DNA from: a bacterium
Lineage (GTDB): Bacteria > Patescibacteriota > Minisyncoccia > Phycocordibacterales > Phycocordibacteraceae
Direction of reading: 5' to 3'
Length of the DNA: 64,000 bases
Assembly (NCBI GenBank): GCA_021833245.1
Contig: JAKBGA010000001.1
Location: 7,466 to 71,465, forward strand
The position numbers and the translations under genes are program-made. Under the pieces are notes generated by a model. The model searched no databases, was not told the origin of the DNA, and saw only the letters and a program-made list of their open reading frames with translations. Positions 4,444 through 59,704 of the stretch are shown here, in pieces. The stretch's first letter is position 1, and every line of letters begins with the position of its first letter.

Positions 4444-4983
4444 TTATGACGCACGGTCAAAAAGAATCCCGAGTGCCTTCACGAGTAACTCCTTAGTAGA
4501 TTCGTTATTGATATTTCCATCTGCGTCAAAAATTTCCTGTGCCGGTCCGAGATAAAGTTCCGGCTGGCCGATAACATCAGCATTAAGATGAAGCATGATT
4601 TGTCGCAAGTGACTCTGTGCAACAGCAGTACCAATCTTTCCAAGTGAGACACCTGCGATCAAAATCGGCTTCCCTACGAAAGAATTTTCTCCATATGGAC
4701 GACTGATCCAGTCGATCGCATTCTTCAATACACCGGGAATAGAACGATTATATTCCGGTGTTGCCATAATAATGCCATCGGCAGCTTCAATTTTTTCTTT
4801 GAGTGCTCGCGCTTCTTTAGGGAATGCGGTTTCGGTATCCTGACTATAGAGAGGAAGATTACCGATTTCTACAATTTCGATTTGCATGTCTGATGGCGCG
4901 AGTAGCTGCAAAGCACTCAGTAACACAGTATTGAGCGACTCTTTTCTTAAACTTCCTGAAATTGCTATAACATTCATGATCAT
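4444..4983 (-). CDS. NAD(P)H-dependent FMN reductase family protein
   Basis: MNVIAISGSLRKESLNT...ATPEYNRSIPGVLKNAIDW is the NADPH-dependent FMN reductase fold (SsuE/ArsH-like). Confidence 0.75.
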   Translation of the reverse strand: MIMNVIAISGSLRKESLNTVLLSALQLLAPSDMQIEIVEIGNLPLYSQDTETAFPKEARALKEKIEAADGIIMATPEYNRSIPGVLKNAIDWISRPYGENSFVGKPILIAGVSLGKIGTAVAQSHLRQIMLHLNADVIGQPELYLGPAQEIFDADGNINNESTKELLVKALGILFDRAS

Positions 4984-10279: not shown

Positions 10280-11554
10280 CTAATATTCACGAAGTGAGAC
10301 TTGGGCATCAATTTTTTGCGCGAGGTCGAGCGCAACCTGAACTGCAATAAGGAGCGCAGTGCCACCCAAGACAAGTGTCGTTATGCCGGTGAGGCCTTGT
10401 ATAATCGAAGGTGCTACAGCAAGAAGACCGAGGAAACAGGCTCCGGGAAGCGTAACACGATTCACCACCTTGCCTATATATTCTTCAGTTTCACGGCCTG
10501 GGCGCACACCGGGGACAAATGCACCAGTCTTCTGAAGATTTTCTGCAACGCGCTTCGGTTCAAACGTCACTGCAGTATAAAAATAAGTAAATAGCACCAC
10601 GAGCAGGAAATAGATTGTACCGTACTTCCATGGATTTGAAAGAAATGCGGTGTACCACAGTGCCGCGCTTGTCGCGAATGAGATATGTAACGCTCCAAGC
10701 ATTGAGAGCGCCATCTGCGGCAAAAGCAAAAGCGACAATGCGAAAATGATAGGTATCACACCTGCTTGCAGGAGCCGGATCGGCAAATAAGTCGCCGCAC
10801 CTTGTGAAAGCGCCGCGCCGCGTACTGCTCGCGCATATGCGATTGGTATTGAGCGCTCGGCGTCAGAGACAACCACGACCGCGTAAATCATTGCAAGCGC
10901 GAGCAGTATAAATGCGAGATATGCTGGAATGTTTGCCGCGGTTGAGGCAAAAAGCGTTTCTGAAATGCCGGAAGGTACTCGTGCAAGGATACCCGCGAGA
11001 ATTATAAGCGATACACCGTTACCGATACCGAACTCGGTCACAAGTTCACCGAGCCACATGAGAAGCAAGGATCCTGCGGTAACAAGTGCGATATTCGCGA
11101 TAAGTGCTACAGAGCCAAGGTGGCTTATCACATTTTGACCTTCAAGCAGAAATAGGAAACCAACGGCCTGCAGAACGGCAATTGGTATGGTAAGAAGACG
11201 ACTCCATTCGATAAATTTCGCGCGACCAGCCTCACCTTCCTCAAAATATGCTTGCTTTACTTGTGGAAACACCATGGTACCAAGCTGCATAATTATTGAA
11301 GCAGTGATGTAGGGCCCAACGCCGAGCATCACGATTGAGAGCTGGGAAAGACCGCCTCCTGAGAATATGTTCAAAAGACCAAAAAATTGGTTGTTTGCGA
11401 AAAAAGAAGCGAGTGCAATACGGTTGACACCTGGAATCGGAATCGCCGCAAGCAAACGAAAAAGTGCGAGTGCGCCAATAAGAAAAAATATACGAAAACG
11501 GATCTCGTGATCACCAAAAGAAAGCTTGAGTTTACGAATAAAAGAATTAAGCAT
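10280..11554 (-). CDS. secY: preprotein translocase subunit SecY
   Basis: Ten TM helices follow a conserved N-terminus (MLNSFIRKLKLSFGDHEIRFRIFFLIGALALFRLLAAIPIPGV). The start is refined to the Met at codon 71 of the 494-aa ORF, since the upstream extension is not SecY-like. Confidence 0.85.
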   Translation of the reverse strand: MLNSFIRKLKLSFGDHEIRFRIFFLIGALALFRLLAAIPIPGVNRIALASFFANNQFFGLLNIFSGGGLSQLSIVMLGVGPYITASIIMQLGTMVFPQVKQAYFEEGEAGRAKFIEWSRLLTIPIAVLQAVGFLFLLEGQNVISHLGSVALIANIALVTAGSLLLMWLGELVTEFGIGNGVSLIILAGILARVPSGISETLFASTAANIPAYLAFILLALAMIYAVVVVSDAERSIPIAYARAVRGAALSQGAATYLPIRLLQAGVIPIIFALSLLLLPQMALSMLGALHISFATSAALWYTAFLSNPWKYGTIYFLLVVLFTYFYTAVTFEPKRVAENLQKTGAFVPGVRPGRETEEYIGKVVNRVTLPGACFLGLLAVAPSIIQGLTGITTLVLGGTALLIAVQVALDLAQKIDAQVSLREY

Positions 11555-14237: not shown

Positions 14238-14742
14238 AAAAAATAAAGCTCCGAAGAGCGTATGAGTACTGTATCACTCCATATCTACGCCGTCAAACAT
14301 TTGTGCGAATCCGGTACTTTTGAGTATTTTCGCTCTGGTAATTTACCAAAAATAACGCAATAGAGACACGAGTTCAAGGCTCAATGCGGACCAATGGATG
14401 GTTTTATACCTATACCATGAAAGAGAATCCATCAACTTCTTGTTGAAGAGGTCAGTACTATGGGGAATACGGCGAACGGTGATATGTGATGAACATATCG
14501 AAGAAAGTGCAATAAACCACACGATCTCAGTATTCTGTTTGGTAGAGTGCTAATACGTGTTGAAGGTGCATATATCTCACCGATTAATAAGCGCCGTACA
14601 GAAATGAGTGATTGTCAGTGATGCACAAAATAGTGAGACGCGAGACATATGCAGGAGACGAAAAGCCCAATAACCTATTGTTCTCAATATTCTGCAATTA
14701 TATTCTTATAAACTACAAATTACCTTGAAGACCCTATATAGA

Positions 14743-17888: not shown

Positions 17889-18233
17889 TTACTTCGCGGT
17901 AGACGTAACAGATGTCTTTGCCGCCTTTGCTGAAGCAATCTCTGCCTTCTGCTTCTTCTGCTCCATTTCTTTCTGCATCTTGCCTCCATGACGAATAAAC
18001 TTTTTAGTTGATGAAAATTCACCGAGACGATGCCCGACCATTTCCTCGGAAACAAGTACCTCGAGATGCTGTTTACCATTATGAACGCCAAAAGTAAATC
18101 CAATCATGTCGGGGCTTATTTGACTTCGGCGTGCCCACGTCTTAATAACGCCTGCCGATGCAGGTTTCGCATTCAAGACCTTCTTCAGGAGCTTAGCATC
18201 CACGAAAGGTCCTTTTTTAAGTGAGCGAGCCAT
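17889..18233 (-). CDS. rpsS: 30S ribosomal protein S19 (Lys/Ala-rich C-terminal tail)
   Basis: [19 protein letters not shown]...[35 protein letters not shown] is an S19 sequence. The start was refined to the Met at codon 37 of a TTG-initiated ORF. Confidence 0.9.
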
Positions 18234-18387
18234 GTGAAGTAATGAAAAGCCCGCGCAAGCGCGAGACAAGTAAAAGATACAGGAATGTTGCAAACCCGTC
18301 AAATATTTGTATTCGTCTACACAATACCTGTCCATATACAATATTAATTGTGTACGCTACATCACCTTTTGGATATACTTATAATGT

Positions 18388-19101
18388 GTGAGAAAACTTG
18401 CAATAAGTACTGTCGCAATTACCCTCGTCATCCTTGTCGGGATCGGGCTTTATTTGTCAGTAAAGCCCATATCCACAAAAACACCAGAGGTTACCTTACC
18501 CGTGGGAGGAAGTTACAGTGAACATACAAAATATTACGATATCGCTACGAATTATCCGGTAACCACGTCACTCGCTGGAACCGCAAACGGTCCTGCACTC
18601 GTACTAATACGAAGTTTTATCGGCCAAACCATAAAACAGTTCAAAACTAGTTTCACTGCCTTTGCTCGGGGGCGTAAGAGCGCGCTCCAGATCACCTATC
18701 TCATCGGTTCCTCTATAAACACACTCTCGTACATATTTACCGTCTATGAAAATATCGGTGGAACACACAGCATGTTTTTCCACACATTTGTGTTCGATAC
18801 CACAACTGGACAGAATCTTTCACTCGCAGATCTCTTTCTACCTGGCACCCATTACCTAGACACACTCTCCCAGATAAGCCGTGCTGAATTGCCAACTGTC
18901 ATCGGTATCGGTGCAACAGACCTCGCTACCATCACCAGCGGCACGAAACCATACGAGAAAAATTTTTCGGACTTCTTTTTTGATAACAATGACTTCGTTC
19001 TTCTGTTCCCACCTTATCAAGTAGCCTCCTATGCGGCAGGTCCACAAACATTGCGTATACCACTTCAGAAACTTTCCAGTATTCTGAAATCAAAATATTA
19101 A
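18388..19101 (+). CDS. membrane-anchored DUF4163/DUF3298 (RsiV anti-sigma-factor extracellular domain-like) protein
   Basis: An N-terminal TM anchor is followed by the C-terminal FPPYQVASYAAGPQ motif characteristic of DUF3298. It has a GTG start. It lies opposite-strand between rplB and rpsS, with a hairpin plus T-run immediately downstream (about 19108-19131). Confidence 0.6.
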   Translation: MRKLAISTVAITLVILVGIGLYLSVKPISTKTPEVTLPVGGSYSEHTKYYDIATNYPVTTSLAGTANGPALVLIRSFIGQTIKQFKTSFTAFARGRKSALQITYLIGSSINTLSYIFTVYENIGGTHSMFFHTFVFDTTTGQNLSLADLFLPGTHYLDTLSQISRAELPTVIGIGATDLATITSGTKPYEKNFSDFFFDNNDFVLLFPPYQVASYAAGPQTLRIPLQKLSSILKSKY

Positions 19102-19150
19102 ACACAGAATCCCCGTCTGGACGAGGATTCTTAAATTCTAGAGAATTTTT

Positions 19151-19363
19151 TTACTTTTCTTCTTGAAAAGACGGCTCAGAACCTGTTTCAAGAGATCTCA
19201 AATAACAGCGGGCATCCGGTCTGCAGTGATAAATGAAAACCGTTATTTTTTTTTCATCTTCTACGCTAATCTCAGTATATCCGTCTTTTAGAGCAACTTC
19301 TTTCCGACATGCTGAAGATGCACATACTATTACTCTTTCAAGAGCAAGGGTGAGTACGTTCAT
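19151..19363 (-). CDS. small hypothetical Cys-containing protein (possible ORF between rplB and rpsS)
   Basis: A 70-aa ORF with two CxxxC/CxxxxxC pairs. It is on the same strand as the ribosomal genes and shows no homology I can recognise. Confidence 0.25.
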   Translation of the reverse strand: MNVLTLALERVIVCASSACRKEVALKDGYTEISVEDEKKITVFIYHCRPDARCYLRSLETGSEPSFQEEK

Positions 19364-19426
19364 GGCAATACCCCTCCATGTCTACCTTCTACGGATTAAG
19401 GATAGCACCAAATTTAAGGACTGAAT

Positions 19427-20275
19427 TTAACCATTGCGCTTCTTGCCAACTTTACGACGTGAAATTATAAATGTATTTGAATACTTTTTTGGAGTACGTG
19501 TTTTTTGACCCTTGCCCGAGGGTTTACCCCACATGGTCTTCGCGCGGCGCAATCCACGACCTTGTTTACCTTCGCCGCCACCGTGCGGGTGATCAACGGG
19601 ATTCATAGCGGTACCGCGAACTGTGGGACGAATACCCATCCAGCGACTACGACCAGCTTTGCCAATAACGACTAGATTATATTCTTCGTTACCAACAGTA
19701 CCGACACTTGCCCACGCGAGATCCGATATTTTGCGTATCTCAGTTGATGGAAGTTTTAGCTGTGCATAACCTGCATCATGCGCAACTACTTCGGCAAAAT
19801 TTCCTGCGGAACGGACAAGACGTGCTCCAGCACCAGGTGAAATCTCAATATTATAGACGAAAGTACCCACCGGTATCGAACCGAGCGGAAGGCGGTTACC
19901 CAAAGCAATCGGTGCGTCGGCAGAAACGATAAAAGAATCGCCGACTTTCATTGCTTTTGGCAAGACAACGTAACGCCGCGCGCCATCCCGATAAAGCACA
20001 AGTCCGATGAATGCAGAACGGAATGGATCATACTCAATGGTTTCAATTTTTGCCGGTATATTTTTTTTATCATAGTAAAAGTCCACATCACGCAACCGAC
20101 GCTTGTGACCACCGCCCTGGTGGCGCGTAGTGATGCGGCCAAAAGCGTTTCGACCACCTTGCCGTTTCTTTTTTTTCAATAAAGGTTTGTATGGTACATC
20201 ACCGGAAAGAAGCTCCTTGTATGGGAGTGTGGTCATAAAACGACGACTTTTTGTGGTTGGACGATAGGATTTCAT
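19427..20275 (-). CDS. rplB: 50S ribosomal protein L2
   Basis: GRNAFGRITTRHQGGGHKRRLRDVDF...GTAMNPVDHPHGGGEGK is an L2 sequence. Confidence 0.95.
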   Translation of the reverse strand: MKSYRPTTKSRRFMTTLPYKELLSGDVPYKPLLKKKKRQGGRNAFGRITTRHQGGGHKRRLRDVDFYYDKKNIPAKIETIEYDPFRSAFIGLVLYRDGARRYVVLPKAMKVGDSFIVSADAPIALGNRLPLGSIPVGTFVYNIEISPGAGARLVRSAGNFAEVVAHDAGYAQLKLPSTEIRKISDLAWASVGTVGNEEYNLVVIGKAGRSRWMGIRPTVRGTAMNPVDHPHGGGEGKQGRGLRRAKTMWGKPSGKGQKTRTPKKYSNTFIISRRKVGKKRNG

Positions 20276-22166: not shown

Positions 22167-22739
22167 TTAAAGGCCATTACGCCCTAAAACTGTTTTGACG
22201 GTTCGGGAAAGAATATATAGATCAAGTAGGAAACAATGGTGGTTAATATAGAAGGATTCTAGACGGAAAACACATCGAATACCGCGTTTGAGCGACCACA
22301 TTCTCCCATGGATCTGCTCAAGCCCGGTCAACCCGGGCCGAACGTTGTTAAGTCGAAGCGCGTATTCAGGAATCTCCTGGATACACTTTTCAACAAATTC
22401 AACCCGATGAGGACGTGGGCCAACTAGACTCATCTGCCCCAACAACACATTGATAAGCTGTGGTAGTTCGTCAATGTGCGTTTCACGCAAAAACTTTCCC
22501 GGCACCGTAATTCGGTTATCACCCAACAAAACCATGTCGAACGGATACCCACTTCCATCCTTCATGGTTCGAAACTTAAAGATGACAAATGACTTACCAC
22601 GATAACCAACACGAGTCTGCCGAAAGATAATCGGCCCAGGTGAAGTTACCCTAATCCAAATCGCAATAAAAAGAACCAGCGGGGCTGAAAAGATCAAGAT
22701 TATGAATGTGCATATGAGATCAAATATTCTTTTGCTCAT
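22167..22739 (-). CDS. small bacterial sugar transferase (polyprenyl-phosphate glycosyl-1-phosphate transferase; WbaP/PglC-like catalytic domain)
   Basis: One N-terminal TM helix and the Bac_transf motifs (RQTRVGYRGKSFVIFKFRTM, DELPQLINVLLGQMSLVGPRP). The start was refined to MSKRIFDL. It is inserted between rpsJ and rplC. Confidence 0.75.
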   Translation of the reverse strand: MSKRIFDLICTFIILIFSAPLVLFIAIWIRVTSPGPIIFRQTRVGYRGKSFVIFKFRTMKDGSGYPFDMVLLGDNRITVPGKFLRETHIDELPQLINVLLGQMSLVGPRPHRVEFVEKCIQEIPEYALRLNNVRPGLTGLEQIHGRMWSLKRGIRCVFRLESFYINHHCFLLDLYILSRTVKTVLGRNGL

Positions 22740-22862
22740 CACTTCCTCCTTAAAAGCGGTAAAAGTGATAGTCGCTGTATACCACAAAAATATGTATATC
22801 GTCAAGTACAAGAAACCGCCCCTACAAGGGGCGGTTTCTTGTACTTCTTTTACAGCATCATT

Positions 22863-24764: not shown

Positions 24765-26126
24765 TTACTGACTGAGTGTCCCGATCCAAACACCACCTTG
24801 AGACGTAAGTGCCACGAGGCGCATACCATCGGAGGAAGAGATAATGCTACTCCAGGAGTGCAAGCCTGCGCTCGTTTGAGCGTTCCATGTACTGCCAGAG
24901 TCGGAAGACGTATAGATATAGCCTCCAGTACCAGCGCCGGCGTCATAGATTGCCGCGAGATGCGTACCGTCGGCGGAAGAGACAATACCACCCCAGTAAC
25001 GCTGACCGGCACCAGTTTGAGCGGTCCATGTAGAACCAGAGTCCGATGATGTATAAATGTCACCGCCGCTCCCAGTTCCGCCGTCAGACGCTGCGAGATG
25101 CGTACCGTCGGCAGAAGAAACGAGACCAGACAAGGCACCCGTTGCGTCCCCCATACTATGCATGATCCATGTGGTGCCAGAATCCGAGGATGTGAAAACA
25201 CAGCTACCCACTTCGGTACACGTAGTGTCAATGACTGCGAGATGCGTACCGTCGGCGGAAGAAACAATATGACCGAGCGCGATTTGATAAGACGTACCAT
25301 CTTGAGGTAGCGTGTGAGTAGCCCAAGTAACGCCGAAATCGGCAGAAGTATAAACAACATCAAGCCCTGCAACCGCGAGATGCATACCGTCGGCGGAGGA
25401 CGCGATTCCCGATGCGTTTGTAATTTGACCGGCAGTACCAGTAATGGCGCGCTTAACCCAGGTGACACCGGAATCAGCGGAAACATATACTTCTTTGCCG
25501 TCGGTACCAGCGGCTGCGAGATGTGTACCGTCAGCGGAAGAAGTTATATACCACAATGATGATCCCCCGGGGACGGGCCGATAAACCCATGTGGTGCCAG
25601 AATCATTGGAAGTATATACACCTCCATTTGGGAGGGTATCAACTGCTGCGAGATGCGTACCGTCGGCGGAAGAAGTGATGGTGGAAAAATATAAGGTTGA
25701 TGAACTTTTTGCTTTATATGAACCTTCTGCATTGTGTTCAGCCCAGGTCCAAGAACCCCCCGTGTTATTAATCGGCTCTGTCTGGGGCGCGGAAACATTA
25801 GAGTTATTAGAGTTAGAGTATGTAAAATACGCGAAAACCGCTCCTCCGCCAATAATGGCAATGGCGACCAAGACGATGAGTTTTGTAGAAATTGCTGCCC
25901 CTCTTTTATTTGATACATGATTTAGACTTGTTGCAGATTGCTGTTGGATCGGTGTTGAGAGGTGTGAAGAAATAGATGGTGTCGGAATACTCATTGCGGC
26001 AAATGCTGCACTGATGTCTGAAACCTGCCATCCGTTCGTCGTGAGTTCTTTTGTGATATCTTCCCTTGAAATGCCAGAGGCCATTTGTTGGCGGATGTAA
26101 TTCAGGAGTTGTTCGTTGGGCATCAT
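24765..26126 (-). CDS. membrane-anchored BNR/Asp-box repeat (beta-propeller) protein with a conserved about 40-aa cytoplasmic N-terminal module
   Basis: The N-terminus (LLNYIRQQMASGISREDITKELTTNGWQVSDISAAF) is followed by a TM helix and then about 7 repeats of SSADGTHLAA...YTSxDSGxTW, the S-x-D-x-G-x-T-W Asp-box/BNR motif. It is inserted between fusA and tuf. Several overlapping frame-shadow ORFs are repeat artefacts. Confidence 0.7.
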   Translation of the reverse strand: MMPNEQLLNYIRQQMASGISREDITKELTTNGWQVSDISAAFAAMSIPTPSISSHLSTPIQQQSATSLNHVSNKRGAAISTKLIVLVAIAIIGGGAVFAYFTYSNSNNSNVSAPQTEPINNTGGSWTWAEHNAEGSYKAKSSSTLYFSTITSSADGTHLAAVDTLPNGGVYTSNDSGTTWVYRPVPGGSSLWYITSSADGTHLAAAGTDGKEVYVSADSGVTWVKRAITGTAGQITNASGIASSADGMHLAVAGLDVVYTSADFGVTWATHTLPQDGTSYQIALGHIVSSADGTHLAVIDTTCTEVGSCVFTSSDSGTTWIMHSMGDATGALSGLVSSADGTHLAASDGGTGSGGDIYTSSDSGSTWTAQTGAGQRYWGGIVSSADGTHLAAIYDAGAGTGGYIYTSSDSGSTWNAQTSAGLHSWSSIISSSDGMRLVALTSQGGVWIGTLSQ

Positions 26127-48509: not shown

Positions 48510-48687
48510 GGACGAATCAATCGTAGCACAATGTGGATGGTTTTTTAGCGATTGTGCCGTAATATGCATATACGCCCCGATAGTGAAACGGATATCACGC
48601 GACGCTTCGGACGTCGAATTCTGGGTTCGACTCCTGGTCGGGGCACTAGAAATCTTGATAAGTGCCATGCTATCATGCTGCGGAGAC

Positions 48688-48758
48688 GCGGGTATGGTTC
48701 AATGGTAGAACATCTGGTTGCCAATCAGATGATGGGAGTTCGATTCTCCCTACCCGCA
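48688..48758 (+). tRNA. tRNA-Gly (GCC)
   Basis: The cloverleaf was read directly. GCGGGTA forms the acceptor, T-arm GGGAGTTCGATTCTCCC, anticodon stem TCTGG/TCAGA, loop TTGCCAA. Length 71 nt, and CCA is not encoded. Confidence 0.85.
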
Positions 48759-48827
48759 CAGCAGTCAGCAGCCTATTTTCAGACCGCGAGGTCTCTATTT
48801 CAGTTCGCAACCGCGAGGGTCACTTGC

Positions 48828-48861
48828 ACACAAAAGCGCGATATTCGTCGCGCTTTTGTGT
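48828..48861. other. 14-bp perfect stem-loop downstream of tRNA-Gly(GCC)
   Basis: ACACAAAAGCGCGA-tattcg-TCGCGCTTTTGTGT. It is preceded by two copies of ACCGCGAGG within about 60 nt. No U-tract follows. Confidence 0.45.
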
Positions 48862-49656
48862 TAATCGGCGAGCGTGATGATGCGATCGCATGGATGTTCT
48901 AGCAGTTCACGCTTCTATTCATGACCTCCGTTCTTCAAGAGATACTTTGCGTATTTTCAGACGTCTATTTCTTTTGCCTTCAACTGAGGATGGTTCTCTA
49001 GTACTCAGTATTTTGGCCCTCTCTTAAGAGTCGTGATGCCAGAGCAACAGTGTCTATGGAGAAATAGTTTCATGAAATTGATATTTCAAATCCACGAGTT
49101 GGTCAGAAAAATGTGAGCAGGGTCATGCTGACACATTTTGAACTGACACATCCCGTGTGATTGGGTGTGGAATGAGATACATGTTTCGGAAATATGGAGG
49201 AAAATTTATACATATTTTATAAACTGGGTTACACCTTGTACTATTCTGAACAAGAACCCGTTGGACATGTGGCCATGTGTTTCGTGGTGTCCTTGTTTCG
49301 TATGCAGCTTCCAAAGTGATACAAAATGTAGACTATAAATTAAGTCTGTGATAAATTCACATCAGATGTAATCTGTGTGTGAATTTTCAAACAAATAAAG
49401 TGAGGAGCAAAGATAACGATGGAAATGGATGAGAACAATGGACGCGACGAAGCGTCTTACCACGTGAGTAAGATAATAGACGACCGCTCCTATGTGAGCG
49501 GTGCACCAATCGATCCTATGTTTAGGGTAGAGTGGGAAAGTAAAAAATCCACCCTTCTGGAAAGGATTGATCAGATCATTGCATCAAGGTCTGATAGATA
49601 AGTCCAGTAAGGAATATTACGACGAGCGTATCCGGTTAGTGGAGTACGCTCGTTTT

Positions 49657-50121
49657 TTATAGATGATTATCATTTCTCGAGTTATTGTACTTTTTATTTT
49701 TTAATATGATTCCGATTCCCACATTGTGTTCTATATAATCAATTGCGGTCTTGAGAAGACTCACACTGTTATTAAACTTTCCAAGACCAACTTTGCAGTT
49801 TAAACAAAGCAATCCCCGTACTACCATTGTTTCGGGGGAATAATCTAGCGCGGGTCTTTTCATCGGGGAACTACATATTCCACATAATCCATGCTGTTGT
49901 TCAAACAATTCCGCATACAGCTGTCTGTATAGGCTCGCTGTTCCAAACAATAAGGCTAATTTCTTATCGTCAAGACATTGCCGACAACATGTTTTTCCAT
50001 CAACTGGAGGATTCTTCTCGCAATTCGGACAGATACCCATCGCCTTAAGCGCAGCCCTGCGTTTCCTTTGATAATTTAAAAACCGTTGTCTATCATATTC
50101 TGACCTCCAAGATTTAGACAT
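49657..50121 (-). CDS. recombination endonuclease VII-like (phage T4 Endo VII family) Zn-binding nuclease
   Basis: GLCGICSSPMKRPALDYSPETMVVRGLLCLNCKVGLGKF matches the Endonuclease_7 HNH-like core. Additional CxxC pairs lie N-terminally. It sits in an AT-rich islet between two tRNAs. Confidence 0.65.
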   Translation of the reverse strand: MSKSWRSEYDRQRFLNYQRKRRAALKAMGICPNCEKNPPVDGKTCCRQCLDDKKLALLFGTASLYRQLYAELFEQQHGLCGICSSPMKRPALDYSPETMVVRGLLCLNCKVGLGKFNNSVSLLKTAIDYIEHNVGIGIILKNKKYNNSRNDNHL

Positions 50122-50449
50122 AAATTACTATCCACAATAATATACTGTGGATAATTGATAAAGTGGAAAAAGGTGTTAGTACTGGGGATAAAGGACAATT
50201 ACTCCTAGTAAGACTTTATTACCGTCCTAAAGTTTATCGAGTAAACAAGCCATATTTCTAAAAGTCGTAAAAACCTTCTATAAAGAGGGTTGATATATTT
50301 AATCTGACCGAAAAAAGTTGAGTTAAAGGAAAAAATTGTATCTAATTTTTAATTCTCAAATCCTATCTCTCTTGCTCTGAGTCGAATATTTGATACATTA
50401 CCTAGAACTATCTGCCGTGAATCGCTTAGAACTGTTAGGATGCTATTAA

Positions 50450-50520
50450 CGGGCCGGAGTATGCTGGCAGTACGCCTGCTTTGGGAGCAGGTAGACCGAG
50501 TTCGATTCTCGGCGGCCCGA
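50450..50520 (+). tRNA. tRNA-Pro (TGG)
   Basis: Acceptor CGGGCCG/CGGCCCG+A, anticodon stem CCTGC/GCAGG with loop TTTGGGA, T-arm CCGAGTTCGATTCTCGG. Confidence 0.8.
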
Positions 50521-50523
50521 TTG

Positions 50524-51633
50524 TTATGGCATATGTGCAACTAAAATCGCCTCAAGTATGGAGATATTTGTTGTAAAATTGGTTATCGAGATTGCAACTG
50601 GTTCAGCAAGAAGAGAATTGAGTGTTCTACCAGTCTCCATTGCATAATCAGCACGAATATATGATTCAGTAATGGCACTGAGCTCGCGCGAGCTTGTATC
50701 GCCAGAAATCGTACTTGTAGTGATAGTACCCGCAAGTTCTCCGCTGGCATTCGCGACTCCTCCACCAGAAGACCCTTCCTGCGCTGCAACTGAACCGCCA
50801 AGTGCAAGTACGTCGATTGTGCTCGTCGCAAACGTGAATACGTTTTTTACTGAACCGAAGACGACCGTAGGGAAGAGGGAAGACTGCACTTGACTTGGCT
50901 CAAGAAACTGAGCCCCATAGGAGGCAATAACGATAGGTGTACCCGCGAGAAGCGGTTTAGTTGCAAGCGGTATGAAGTGAAATGAGGAAGGAAGTGCAGC
51001 AAGAGTCGCGCTCTTAGTAATAGCGAGGAGTGCGAAATCATACTGGCCAGTTCCGCTTGGTGCGGTTTCAGTAAGCAAGCCAGCATTAGCATTAATCCAT
51101 GCAGGTGAAATAAATATGAGTGCCGCGTTATAGCTGTCCGTGGCTGGACTTCCCGAACGGATGATGCAAGAAACGCCGCGATTCGCAAGAAGAAAGTATT
51201 GTGCAACATGGGCGTTTGTGAGAATAATTCCTTTGGGATCGATAATAACCCCACTGCCACTTATGGAGTGTAGACCACTTCCTATAGGTACGTAGCAAAT
51301 TATGTTCACGAGTGCAGCACGTAAGATGGACGCTGATGTATCAAGTGATATATTTCCAGATGGGGATGGGGCGCTAGAATTTCCTTGATCAGTCACTGAC
51401 GCTGTAACAACTCCCTTGTGTTGCGTAGAGATTGTTGTTGTTTCTTTTGCGGTGTGGCTTGAATTGGTATGTACCGGTGGAAAAAATATTGTCGATACTA
51501 GAGGTGTCAACGATACAGACTTTGACGAAGGAATAATATTTGGTGCTGTGAGCATATACCGAAAAAAAACGATTGAAAAACTTCCAAGAAGCAGTGCGAA
51601 CATCATCTTAAGAAGATAGTGCGTGAAGCGCAT
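50524..51633 (-). CDS. membrane-anchored trypsin-like (S1/HtrA-type) serine protease, no PDZ domain
   Basis: N-terminal TM. The catalytic triad context is GSGVIIDPKGIILTNAHV (His), a D in ...SYNAALIF..., and GSSGGGV (Ser). Confidence 0.7.
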   Translation of the reverse strand: MRFTHYLLKMMFALLLGSFSIVFFRYMLTAPNIIPSSKSVSLTPLVSTIFFPPVHTNSSHTAKETTTISTQHKGVVTASVTDQGNSSAPSPSGNISLDTSASILRAALVNIICYVPIGSGLHSISGSGVIIDPKGIILTNAHVAQYFLLANRGVSCIIRSGSPATDSYNAALIFISPAWINANAGLLTETAPSGTGQYDFALLAITKSATLAALPSSFHFIPLATKPLLAGTPIVIASYGAQFLEPSQVQSSLFPTVVFGSVKNVFTFATSTIDVLALGGSVAAQEGSSGGGVANASGELAGTITTSTISGDTSSRELSAITESYIRADYAMETGRTLNSLLAEPVAISITNFTTNISILEAILVAHMP

Positions 51634-51672
51634 TGTTCATACGCTATCCTAAAAATGGTATTCTCGCACTAT

Positions 51673-51744
51673 GCGGGCGTGGTCTAACGGCTATGACGGC
51701 TGCCTTCCAAGCAGTCAGCGCGGGTTCGACTCCCGCCGCCCGCA
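51673..51744 (+). tRNA. tRNA-Gly (TCC)
   Basis: Acceptor GCGGGCG/CGCCCGC+A, anticodon stem GCTGC/GCAGT with loop CTTCCAA, T-arm GCGGGTTCGACTCCCGC. Confidence 0.8.
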
Positions 51745-57598: not shown

Positions 57599-58960
57599 CT
57601 ATCCATCTTTTGCCTTATCGCGATCTTCCTCCGCATCAGCAACAGTCTCGTCGCTATCAGGGAGATTGACTAACTCCTCCTCAGCGGGAAGCTCTGTTGT
57701 CTCTGTAATCTTGTCCGTAATAATTTCGGTGCTCTCGGTCGACATAATGCCAGCCTCTTCTGCGGTACTTCCTTCAGAAGGGCTAACGACGACCATCTCT
57801 CCGTCGGACTCTGCAACCTCGGTGCCGCCTGCTGAAACTATATCAATGTTCCACCCAGTGAGTTTTGCCGCAAGACGCACATTCTGACCACCACGACCAA
57901 TGGCAAGTGATTGTTCATCTTCAGCAACGGTGACTGTTGCACGATGGCCAACTTCGTCAAGCACTAACTCAAGTGGGGTAGCTGGAGAGAGGGCTTCTTT
58001 TACAAATTCTCTCGCATCGCTATTCCATTCAATGATATCAATACGCTCACCACCTAATTCACTCATTACCGTGGAAACACGCACACCGCGTTGACCAACA
58101 AGTGAACCGACTGGGTCGACGTGAGGATCAAGTGATGCGAGAGCGATTTTTGTACGACTACCCGGTTCACGCGCGAGTGCCTTCACCTCGATAGATCCCG
58201 CTGCAAGTTCTGGTGCTTCGAGCTCAAAAAGCTTCACTACAAATTGCGGATGTGCCCGGGAAAGCCGCAGGTATACGCCACGAAAACCTTCGTCCACCGC
58301 ATAAAGGTAAGCACGAATACGCTCACCAATACGATAGCGTTCACCTGGAATTTGTTCTTCATATGAAATGATACCGGTCGTGCGCCCAAGATCAACGAAA
58401 ATTGCCCCGCGCTCCATACGCTGGACAATCCCGCCCACAATTTGGCCTTTTTTCTCACCGAATTCTTCCATCATGGAGAGCTTTTCTGCCTCACGGACTT
58501 TCTGAATGACAACCTGCTTAGCGGTCTGTGCGGCAATACGACCGAAGTCATCTTGTGGCTCGAGTGGAAAAACAATCTCTTCACCGACAGAAACACCGCG
58601 TTTTATAAGTTTCGCATCATTTATGCGAATATGTTTTTCTGGATCAAAGCGGGGTAATTCACCTTCAGCAAGGTGCTCCTCTTCACCGTGAAATGAGCGT
58701 GCATGCGTCGATATTTCTGGTCCTTCATCAGGAGTATGAAAACGAACCGTTGTGTCATCTACAACGGTTTTTATTTGCTCAAAAGAGATTGTTCCTGTGT
58801 TGAGATTGAGTTTGGCATGAACGATTTGTCCACGTTTACCGTATTCACGCTTATACGCTGTCGCCATCGCACTCTCAATAGCATCAATCATCGTCGCGCG
58901 ACTGATACCACGATCTTCGAACTCCCCAAGTACTGTATTGATAGTTTTCAAATCAATCAT
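57599..58960 (-). CDS. nusA: transcription termination/antitermination factor NusA (acidic C-terminal tail)
   Basis: N-terminal domain, S1 and two KH domains (IGRGGQNVRLAAKLTGWNIDIV). The start was refined to MIDLKTIN (codon 18). Confidence 0.85.
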   Translation of the reverse strand: MIDLKTINTVLGEFEDRGISRATMIDAIESAMATAYKREYGKRGQIVHAKLNLNTGTISFEQIKTVVDDTTVRFHTPDEGPEISTHARSFHGEEEHLAEGELPRFDPEKHIRINDAKLIKRGVSVGEEIVFPLEPQDDFGRIAAQTAKQVVIQKVREAEKLSMMEEFGEKKGQIVGGIVQRMERGAIFVDLGRTTGIISYEEQIPGERYRIGERIRAYLYAVDEGFRGVYLRLSRAHPQFVVKLFELEAPELAAGSIEVKALAREPGSRTKIALASLDPHVDPVGSLVGQRGVRVSTVMSELGGERIDIIEWNSDAREFVKEALSPATPLELVLDEVGHRATVTVAEDEQSLAIGRGGQNVRLAAKLTGWNIDIVSAGGTEVAESDGEMVVVSPSEGSTAEEAGIMSTESTEIITDKITETTELPAEEELVNLPDSDETVADAEEDRDKAKDG

Positions 58961-59704
58961 ATGGAATATGTATGTAGCACCTTCTAAAAAGAAAGACCGC
59001 GCCGCGGACATTTCAGATATTATCAGGATACCAGGTGCTGGTTATATGTCAACTTAGCCGCTTGAATTCTAATTTGAAACGCAACATGCCTTTTTGAAAA
59101 TCGCGCAGAGAATACGCCAGCAAAGACTCGCGTGGCGTATGGCTCATGAAGTTCGCCACCTCATCGAGATCTTCTTGAGACTTGAGACACATGAGCCATA
59201 GCATCCCTCAATAGTCGCAGAAATCTCGTATCGCCTCGCGTAATCGGTGTGCATGAAGGTGGCGCCATATTGCCCCCGAAGACACCGATGCTCATATGAT
59301 CTCGGCGGTGCCTGAGAAAGATTACAAATCGAGCAAACGAACTTCGTTCAAATTTGCCTGCCCACGACTTCGAGCCCATACCATCTTCGTTTCTTCCTGT
59401 TCTGCAGCAGATGCTACTTACAGTTAATGCAACAAGAAATATCCACTGCAATGGTTAAGTCGTTCAACGTTCCTGTCGTACCTGCGGATATGCACTTTCA
59501 ACGCTTCAGCATTTGTTGCATTTCAAGAGGGAATTCAGTCCGTAATGTTTCATTAACTTATGAATACGCTAGGATAGTGAGGGGGTTGATTTTGGACATC
59601 TCCTAGATTAGGTTCCTGTCTCGGTAGATAACTCATAAAATAATATCGTGATACACGTCTGTATGTCGCAATAATACTACTGCGATAGTCTATAATTAAA
59701 AAGC

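Follow-up and report, generated by a model that had tools for sequence, protein, structure and literature searches.

The rplB–rpsS gap and its opposite-strand gene

The minus strand of the window (by which we mean the whole stretch of 64,000 nucleotides (nt) analysed here) carries the str/S10/spc cluster, in the order tuf, rpsJ, rplC, rplD, rplW, rplB, rpsS, rplV, rpsC and onwards to secY, adk and map, and between rplB and rpsS a gene of the DUF3298 family lies on the plus strand, antisense to the ribosomal genes. The S10-spc cluster is among the most conserved gene arrangements of bacteria, and forms a single block in phylogenomic work on the Candidate Phyla Radiation (CPR). Compared with the canonical bacterial S10 operon (rpsJ-rplC-rplD-rplW-rplB-rpsS-rplV-rpsC-rplP-rpmC-rpsQ, with a leader controlled by L4), the order and strand of all ribosomal genes are the same, whereas the rplB–rpsS junction is here broken by a predicted terminator, by the opposite-strand gene, and by a new predicted rpsS promoter with a hairpin leader.

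Positions 18234–19426 correspond exactly to this gap of 1193 nt. It is bounded on one side by rplB (ribosomal protein L2; 19427–20275, minus strand; Pfam Ribosomal_L2_N and L2_C, E = 2.8e-29 and 2.1e-48) and on the other by rpsS (ribosomal protein S19; 17889–18233, minus strand; Pfam Ribosomal_S19, E = 2.8e-27), whose ATG, placed by a motif of ten protein letters, is at 18233 and opens a product of 114 amino acids. The gap contains the DUF3298 gene, an open reading frame (ORF) of 237 codons with a GTG start (18388–19101, plus strand), followed by a hairpin at 19106–19131 and by a 70-amino-acid ORF on the minus strand (19151–19363). Its GC content (0.42–0.45) shows no anomaly relative to the flanks (0.40–0.53), and an Rfam scan at the gathering threshold over the whole window, relaxed to E ≤ 5 over 18100–19500, returned no credible RNA family in the gap.

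The DUF3298 gene, described from Pfam, an AlphaFold model, its homologs and its substitution pattern, is conserved well beyond this genome. A total of 253 homologs were found at 45–93% identity, all of them from Patescibacteria (with source labels including Minisyncoccota, Paceibacteria and Kaiserbacteria), and an alignment of 26 sequences has 37 invariant columns. Relative to the 62–65%-identical ortholog of locus L003, the ratio of nonsynonymous to synonymous substitution rates (dN/dS) is 0.19, and the differences fall mainly at third codon positions. On these comparisons, it is a real gene under purifying selection. The GTG reported by the initial annotation is the correct start codon for the window strain, and the sister species L009, whose protein is 93% identical, has ATG at the same position.

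The position of the gene is conserved together with its sequence. Orthologs with 62%, 61% and 52% identity occupy the same antisense slot between rplB and rpsS, and one homolog with 51% identity is located elsewhere. We then scanned species-representative genomes with the homolog alignment, which yielded 68 loci, and identified the flanking genes by tblastn with the L2 and S19 proteins of the window. The homolog lies antisense between rplB and rpsS in 55 of these 68 loci, down to 34% identity, a count that describes where the homolog is placed and not the share of the clade that carries it, as the loci were selected for its presence. One flank was visible in a further six loci and neither flank in seven. 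At every locus where the gene is in the gap its orientation is opposite to that of the ribosomal genes, and in L006/L011 the copy is placed elsewhere. A single recent insertion was considered and rejected on the basis of this clade-wide synteny.

Transcription signals and the organisation of the cluster

A putative sigma-70-type promoter for rpsS was identified in the gap by a promoter scan and by its conservation in the clade (18274–18302, minus strand), consisting of TTGACG (18302–18297), a 17-nt spacer and TATCTT (18279–18274). The pattern TTGAC-N16-18-T[AG]NNNT is found at this place in 56 of 60 species loci, and in an alignment (A3) the T, T and G of the −35 box are invariant. The predicted 5′ leader (18234–18265, minus strand), delineated by folding and alignment, starts with the hairpin CTCGCG-CTTG-CGCGGG (18265–18250), continues with CUUUUCAUUACUUCAC up to the ATG, and contains no Shine-Dalgarno sequence. 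Across the loci the GC hairpin stands about 7 nt past the −10 box and is followed by CUUUUCAUU (rpsS strand), with the ATG located 28–41 nt past the −10 box where the hairpin has the standard length. The leader is near-invariant across the clade, with one compensatory stem variant in two related loci, and covariation is uninformative for the hairpin because the stem hardly varies. Its motif occurs once in the window and matches no Rfam family, and conservation is strong across the divergent region that separates rpsS from the DUF3298 gene.

On the other strand, a predicted −10 box TATACT (18374–18379, plus strand) stands 8 nt ahead of the GTG of the DUF3298 gene. In 56 of 60 loci a TA(C/T)ACT-like hexamer precedes the start codon by 6–11 nt (mode 7–8), 44 of these 56 also have an upstream TGn, and a Shine-Dalgarno-like motif precedes the start in only five of the 60. 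This pattern indicates that the mRNA is probably leaderless and transcribed from an extended −10 promoter.

Where the two 3′ ends converge, a terminator scan and folding revealed a GC-rich hairpin (19106–19131, both strands), whose folding energy is −17.7 kcal/mol for the minus strand (z = −3.5) and −12.8 kcal/mol for the plus strand. For plus-strand transcripts it is completed by a small AT hairpin and a T7 run (19143–19149) within 19133–19160, as seen from the sequence and its folding. L003 and L005 retain the hairpin, in which a compensatory change has occurred, and many relatives have perfect palindromes of A-tract, GC hairpin and T-tract past the DUF3298 stop codon. The sequence thus presents the GC-rich stem-loop and U run of an intrinsic terminator, predicted to be usable from both strands, in line with the bidirectional hairpin and T-run that had been attributed to this gene.

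The rpsS promoter is not tied to the presence of the DUF3298 gene. A scan of metagenomes with the rpsS leader motif gave 75 loci, in 72 of which rpsS begins about 37 nt past the motif. A match to the DUF3298 profile, always on the opposite strand, is present in 30 of the 75, and 26 have rplB upstream and no DUF3298 gene, with the rpsS promoter and leader kept. Among the latter, the rplB stop codon directly adjoins the −35 box in L086 and L110, and in some others the interval between rplB and the −35 box holds a terminator together with another conserved element. The S19 and L22 proteins of DUF3298-free loci are 81–92% identical to those of DUF3298-bearing loci, as close as among themselves, which suggests that the gene was lost or relocated repeatedly. 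Where it is present, the spacers around it range from 94 to ~2200 nt upstream and from 6 to ~2300 nt downstream, and some hold unrelated genes. Given these variable spacers, and the promoter of the DUF3298-free loci, the rpsS promoter appears to be the more general feature. The gap looks insertion-tolerant, with the DUF3298 gene as its most widespread but dispensable occupant, and this dispensability is evidence against an obligatory antisense or coupling role.

The additional genes in the gap are of several kinds. In a deeper sub-clade (L052, L054, L057, L060, L062 and L069) a gene of ~280 codons lies on the rplB strand between the DUF3298 gene and rplB, its L052 copy having weak matches to 2OG-Fe(II) oxygenase and DIOX_N. 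In the same interval, L036 has a HopJ/DapD-like hexapeptide transferase, and L031 and L040 share a protein of ~155–185 amino acids of no named family. In addition, one sub-clade carries, with or without the DUF3298 gene, a conserved element of ~55 nt (TTGTCAAGGTTCTGGAAT..CCTAGGATTTATGAGGGTG...) directly upstream of the rpsS promoter (L014, L020, L021, L024, L027, L029, L038 and L039, and L078, L080, L094, L096, L108, L102 and L134). This element, absent from the window, reads like a second tandem promoter (TTGTCA-17-TAGGAT).

The interpretation that we favour, and to which we give a probability of roughly 0.7, is that the genes around the gap form independent transcription units, that the gap itself is transcriptionally neutral and tolerant of insertions, and that the DUF3298 gene owes its place there to old vertical inheritance. 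In this Kaiserbacteria-like Patescibacterium of the CPR, the S10 cluster would not be one operon and would be cut between rplB and rpsS. The upstream unit, of which rplB is proposed to be the final ribosomal gene, would end past rplB (and, in this lineage, past the 70-amino-acid ORF) at the two-strand hairpin terminator. The downstream unit, with rpsS as its proposed opening gene, would start at the dedicated sigma-70-type promoter and give an mRNA with a 5′ GC hairpin and a U-rich leader devoid of a Shine-Dalgarno sequence. The DUF3298 gene would be an independent, divergently transcribed unit with a leaderless mRNA made from the extended −10 promoter, and it would have been passed on vertically for a long time in a gap with essential genes on both sides. 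The initial annotation, which placed the gene inside the S10 operon, is borne out as regards gene order. As regards the transcription unit it is not, since the opposite-strand gene, the hairpin predicted as a terminator (with equivalents in most relatives) and the conserved promoter predicted at 18302–18274, with its leader, all speak against a single unit.

Several points weigh against this interpretation. The U tract following the hairpin on the minus strand is weak, so that some transcripts may read through it and run antisense to the DUF3298 gene. The transcription starts, the leaderless translation (from GTG in this strain) and the efficiency of termination are all deduced from motifs. 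In ~20 species the two promoters stand back to back within 94–110 nt, which would be compatible with some co-regulation. The history of loss versus gain rests on short markers (S19 and L22), and the 68 genome loci were chosen through the homolog itself. Finally, the near-invariant sequence of the leader hairpin suggests a sequence-specific recognition that goes beyond stabilisation of the mRNA.

The back-to-back promoters lead directly to the alternative that survives best, although we regard it as rather unlikely, namely that the two genes share a bidirectional promoter region, so that an envelope protein is kept beside rpsS with its expression coupled to ribosome synthesis and growth rate. 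The ~20 species with the short divergent region, where the −35 region of rpsS adjoins the DUF3298 promoter, speak for it, as does the very good conservation of both promoter motifs. However, the promoters stand anywhere from ~15 nt to ~2 kb apart, many species have other genes in the interval, 26 related loci lack the DUF3298 gene, and L006/L011 carry it elsewhere. A strict functional coupling to rpsS is weakened by these same 26 loci and by the relocated copy.

An unlikely possibility, which builds on the near-invariance of the hairpin, is that Kaiserbacteria-like CPR have a new cis-regulatory RNA in the rpsS leader (TATC-CCGC-loop-GCGG-GCUUUUCAUU, located right where the 5′ end is predicted). 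A ribosomal protein encoded in the rpsS unit would bind it as an operator or attenuator, and the DUF3298 gene would have been retained alongside in many lineages because its leaderless promoter is under the same growth-rate control. If true, a cell-surface binding protein would be coupled to ribosome production in host-attached organisms. As for the hairpin and U run working as an attenuator or terminator of transcripts initiated at the promoter, we rank this below a role as 5′ stabiliser and translation leader, because the predicted start puts the hairpin at about +3 to +18, and because rpsN has a leader of the same design with a different sequence.

The rpsN leader belongs to the spc part of the cluster, and is another difference from the canonical arrangement. 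Together with the putative promoter of rpsN, it comprises TTGACG, 17 nt, TACAGT, 7 nt, the hairpin GCTC-TTCG-GAGC, UUUAUUUUUU and the ATG (14238–14296). The rplE–rpsN gap in which it lies (14238–14742) measures 505 nt in the window and only 36 nt in L003. Its ~40–60 nt proximal to rpsN are conserved in several other loci, and the remaining ~440 nt have no match among the fetched loci or in Rfam. Another promoter-like site, TTGACA-17-TATCCT, is found at 59025–59052 (minus strand), upstream of an ORF of 470 amino acids (57599–59011), and here too a GC hairpin and then a U-rich tract come next. A promoter with a hairpin and a U-rich leader behind it may be a common design in this genome.

Quite unlikely, in our view, is a regulatory function of convergent transcription, in which plus-strand transcription would collide with S10 transcripts, or produce RNA antisense to them, and thereby tune the output of ribosomal proteins. 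The opposite orientation of the gene at every locus fits such a function, and the poor minus-strand U tract makes read-through across the DUF3298 gene conceivable. Against it stand the hairpin terminator between the convergent genes, with strong palindromic terminators in many relatives, the promoter of rpsS itself, which removes any reliance on read-through, the 26 related loci that keep this promoter with no antisense gene, and the additional genes inserted on either side in other species. The antisense interference that had been anticipated is thus not the outcome to be expected from the predicted rpsS promoter and leader and the terminator hairpin, and the position of the DUF3298 gene can be explained without any regulatory antisense function.

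Independent units in a tolerant gap thus remain our preferred explanation, and under it the mechanism is most likely ordinary and reveals no new regulatory principle. The arrangement represents a variant of the S10 cluster particular to this lineage, with an internal promoter and leader and a conserved opposite-strand gene in the gap. Its significance lies in a large CPR clade where the S10-spc cluster would be cut into separate units that each have a promoter and a hairpin leader of their own, and where the same opposite-strand envelope gene has been carried in one gap across the diversification of the clade. It also provides concrete candidate motifs for promoters, leaders and leaderless starts in uncultured organisms whose gene expression is otherwise unknown. 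In the searchable literature, whose coverage is incomplete, we found no earlier description of DUF3298 in Patescibacteria or of this CPR S10 gene order.

The DUF3298 protein and its relation to RsiV

The C-terminal part of the protein (residues 147–226) matches positions 1–83 of the 84 in the Pfam DUF3298 profile (PF11738; E = 4.8e-13, 50.3 bits against a gathering threshold of 24.1). For PdaC/DUF4163 (PF13739) the sequence scores 15.3 bits, below the gathering threshold of 29.1, and this domain is carried by four of the 120 homologs listed. An AlphaFold model built from 26 homologs (predicted local distance difference test, pLDDT, of 89) has an N-terminal helix at residues 2–25 followed by a mixed alpha/beta body of two domains. 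The matches of this model in the PDB, obtained with Foldseek, are exactly the DUF4163/DUF3298 set, namely 3CYG, RsiV (5JEN), BF2082, PA4972, MPT64 and the N-terminal domains of SpPgdA, and a profile search of PDB sequences recovered the same set. Aligned with 3CYG and 5JEN, which both have two domains, the model superposes over ~200 columns. The plus-strand, membrane-anchored product with a DUF4163/DUF3298-type ectodomain described by the initial annotation is therefore well founded, on the Pfam match above cutoff, the helix of the model and the two-domain fold matches.

Only three residues (MRK) precede the membrane helix, and 3–18 in the homologs. We infer a type II (N-in, C-out) single-pass membrane protein, whose ectodomain would have the DUF4163/DUF3298 fold as in MPT64, 3CYG and the RsiV ectodomain. 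The protein is most likely an envelope-associated binding module.

Among proteins of this fold, the stand-alone ones provide the closest comparison: 3CYG from Fervidobacterium, BF2082 (3S5T), PA4972 (4E72), MPT64/Rv1980c (2HHI) and the exported esterase Rv3036c. These are likewise exported or envelope proteins with no signalling domain, and they supply the best matches in both the profile search and the fold search (3CYG, E = 6.6e-8 with the profile and 1.1e-9 with Foldseek; MPT64, E = 1.4e-6). In contrast to these proteins, which are mostly secreted or lipoproteins, the window protein has in its model an uncleaved N-terminal helix as anchor. The equivalog model for Rv3036c-type esterases (NF043047) is matched with 47.3 bits against a cutoff of 200, and in the C-terminal half only. 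The DUF3298 protein thus adds a new member to this stand-alone group of DUF4163/DUF3298 envelope proteins, and its nearest counterparts there are 3CYG and MPT64. To our knowledge, no other such protein is encoded inside a ribosomal gene cluster. As a conserved surface protein, the DUF3298 protein may be worth studying in connection with the CPR cell envelope or host interface.

RsiV, the anti-sigma-V factor and lysozyme receptor of Bacillus, Clostridioides and Enterococcus, consists of a cytosolic sigma-V-binding domain, a membrane helix and DUF4163 plus DUF3298 (PMC5014341). The likeness to RsiV noted in the initial annotation holds for the ectodomain, since both proteins have a single membrane pass and a tightly packed extracytoplasmic DUF4163/DUF3298 module, and the Foldseek match to 5JEN has E = 8e-9 and a template modelling (TM) score of ~0.6–0.66. 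That our protein is an RsiV-type anti-sigma factor and lysozyme sensor with a sigma partner encoded elsewhere, as this match and the NCBI label 'RsiV family protein' of several homologs might suggest, is nevertheless very unlikely. In contrast to RsiV, it has no N-terminal cytosolic sigma-binding domain and no adjacent sigV, and the sequence identity is 14–16%. With the NCBIfam RsiV equivalog model (NF052658), whose cutoff is 250 bits, the protein reaches 18.3 bits, and lysozyme binding does not follow from the fold, which MPT64 shares although it binds no lysozyme (PMC5014341).

No sigma gene is among the genes called up to 10 kb away in either direction, all of which are ribosomal or housekeeping, in agreement with the earlier remark that no sigma partner is nearby. 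The search for an extracytoplasmic function (ECF) sigma factor, extended to ORFs of up to ~210 amino acids in the window outside this 20-kb stretch, likewise gave none, the nine ECF-sized ORFs found there belonging to other families. Because only MRK precedes the helix and the sigma-binding domain is missing, the protein cannot be an anti-sigma factor, and having no cytoplasmic domain it cannot signal to a sigma factor. The assignment to the RsiV family is right at the level of the fold, and the case is a warning against the automatic annotation of such proteins as 'RsiV family'.

There is virtually no chance that the gene is a spurious antisense ORF or a recent, inconsequential horizontal insertion, since, although long antisense ORFs can arise by chance and a GTG start with no Shine-Dalgarno sequence looks weak at first sight, the Pfam match, the 253 homologs, the dN/dS of 0.19, the confident fold, the unremarkable GC content and the same position in 55 genome and 30 metagenome loci refute it.

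The 70-amino-acid ORF and other insertions in the cluster

The minus-strand ORF downstream of rplB (19151–19363), taken from the ORF list and aligned with its relatives, has GGAGG 8 nt ahead of its ATG. It had been described as Cys-rich, which is generous for a product with only four Cys, but the ORF and its ribosome-binding motif do exist. It is identical in L009, and relative to L003, L004 and L010 it shows 62% amino acid identity and an in-frame indel of 6 nt, with C14, C19, H46, C47 and C53 kept. The dN/dS of 0.39 is a weak signal.

The suggested check of its conservation gave a divided answer: the ORF is conserved in the nearest relatives, but it is frameshifted in L001 and L002, two assemblies of the same species as the window, and a large protein search retrieved same-species copies only. 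The frameshift results from a run of A9 in L001 (~10863–10871) and L002, which truncates the ORF to 39 amino acids, against A10 in the window (~19250–19259) and L009, and could reflect either genuine polymorphism or an artefact of short-read assembly. Pfam and NCBIfam gave no match. From these comparisons the ORF is probably a real small gene, restricted to a lineage and dispensable, and it is not a conserved part of the split-cluster feature. In the equivalent slot, L005 has a CxxC...HxxC ORF of 60 amino acids (4763–4945, minus strand; MLIPEGTKCKACERGF...YYHKHCHEAS...), also with GGAGG as a strong ribosome-binding site, which has no detectable homology to the 70-amino-acid ORF and a similar C-x2-4-C ... 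H-x-C pattern.

The cluster also departs from the canonical S10 operon at the rpsJ–rplC junction, which is broken by a Bac_transf sugar transferase on the operon strand (22167–22811, minus strand; Pfam E = 6.6e-56). The sugar transferase is present at this junction in L003 and L004 too; in L005 a PG_binding_1 protein takes its place upstream of rplC, and L007 and L008 have a PaaX_M gene nearby. The rpsJ–rplC junction looks like a second variable insertion site of the S10 cluster. In addition, an ORF of 453 amino acids with faint BNR/sortilin matches only (24765–26126, minus strand) lies between fusA and tuf, and one of 136 amino acids with no Pfam match lies between rpsG and fusA (~28.5–29 kb); therefore, the str operon is interrupted too. 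Further along the window, four tRNA genes are found by Rfam within ~3 kb (48574–51744), and among them lies an ORF of the Endonuclease VII family (49657–50121, minus strand; Pfam E = 4.5e-13), a stretch that may be the remnant of a mobile element.

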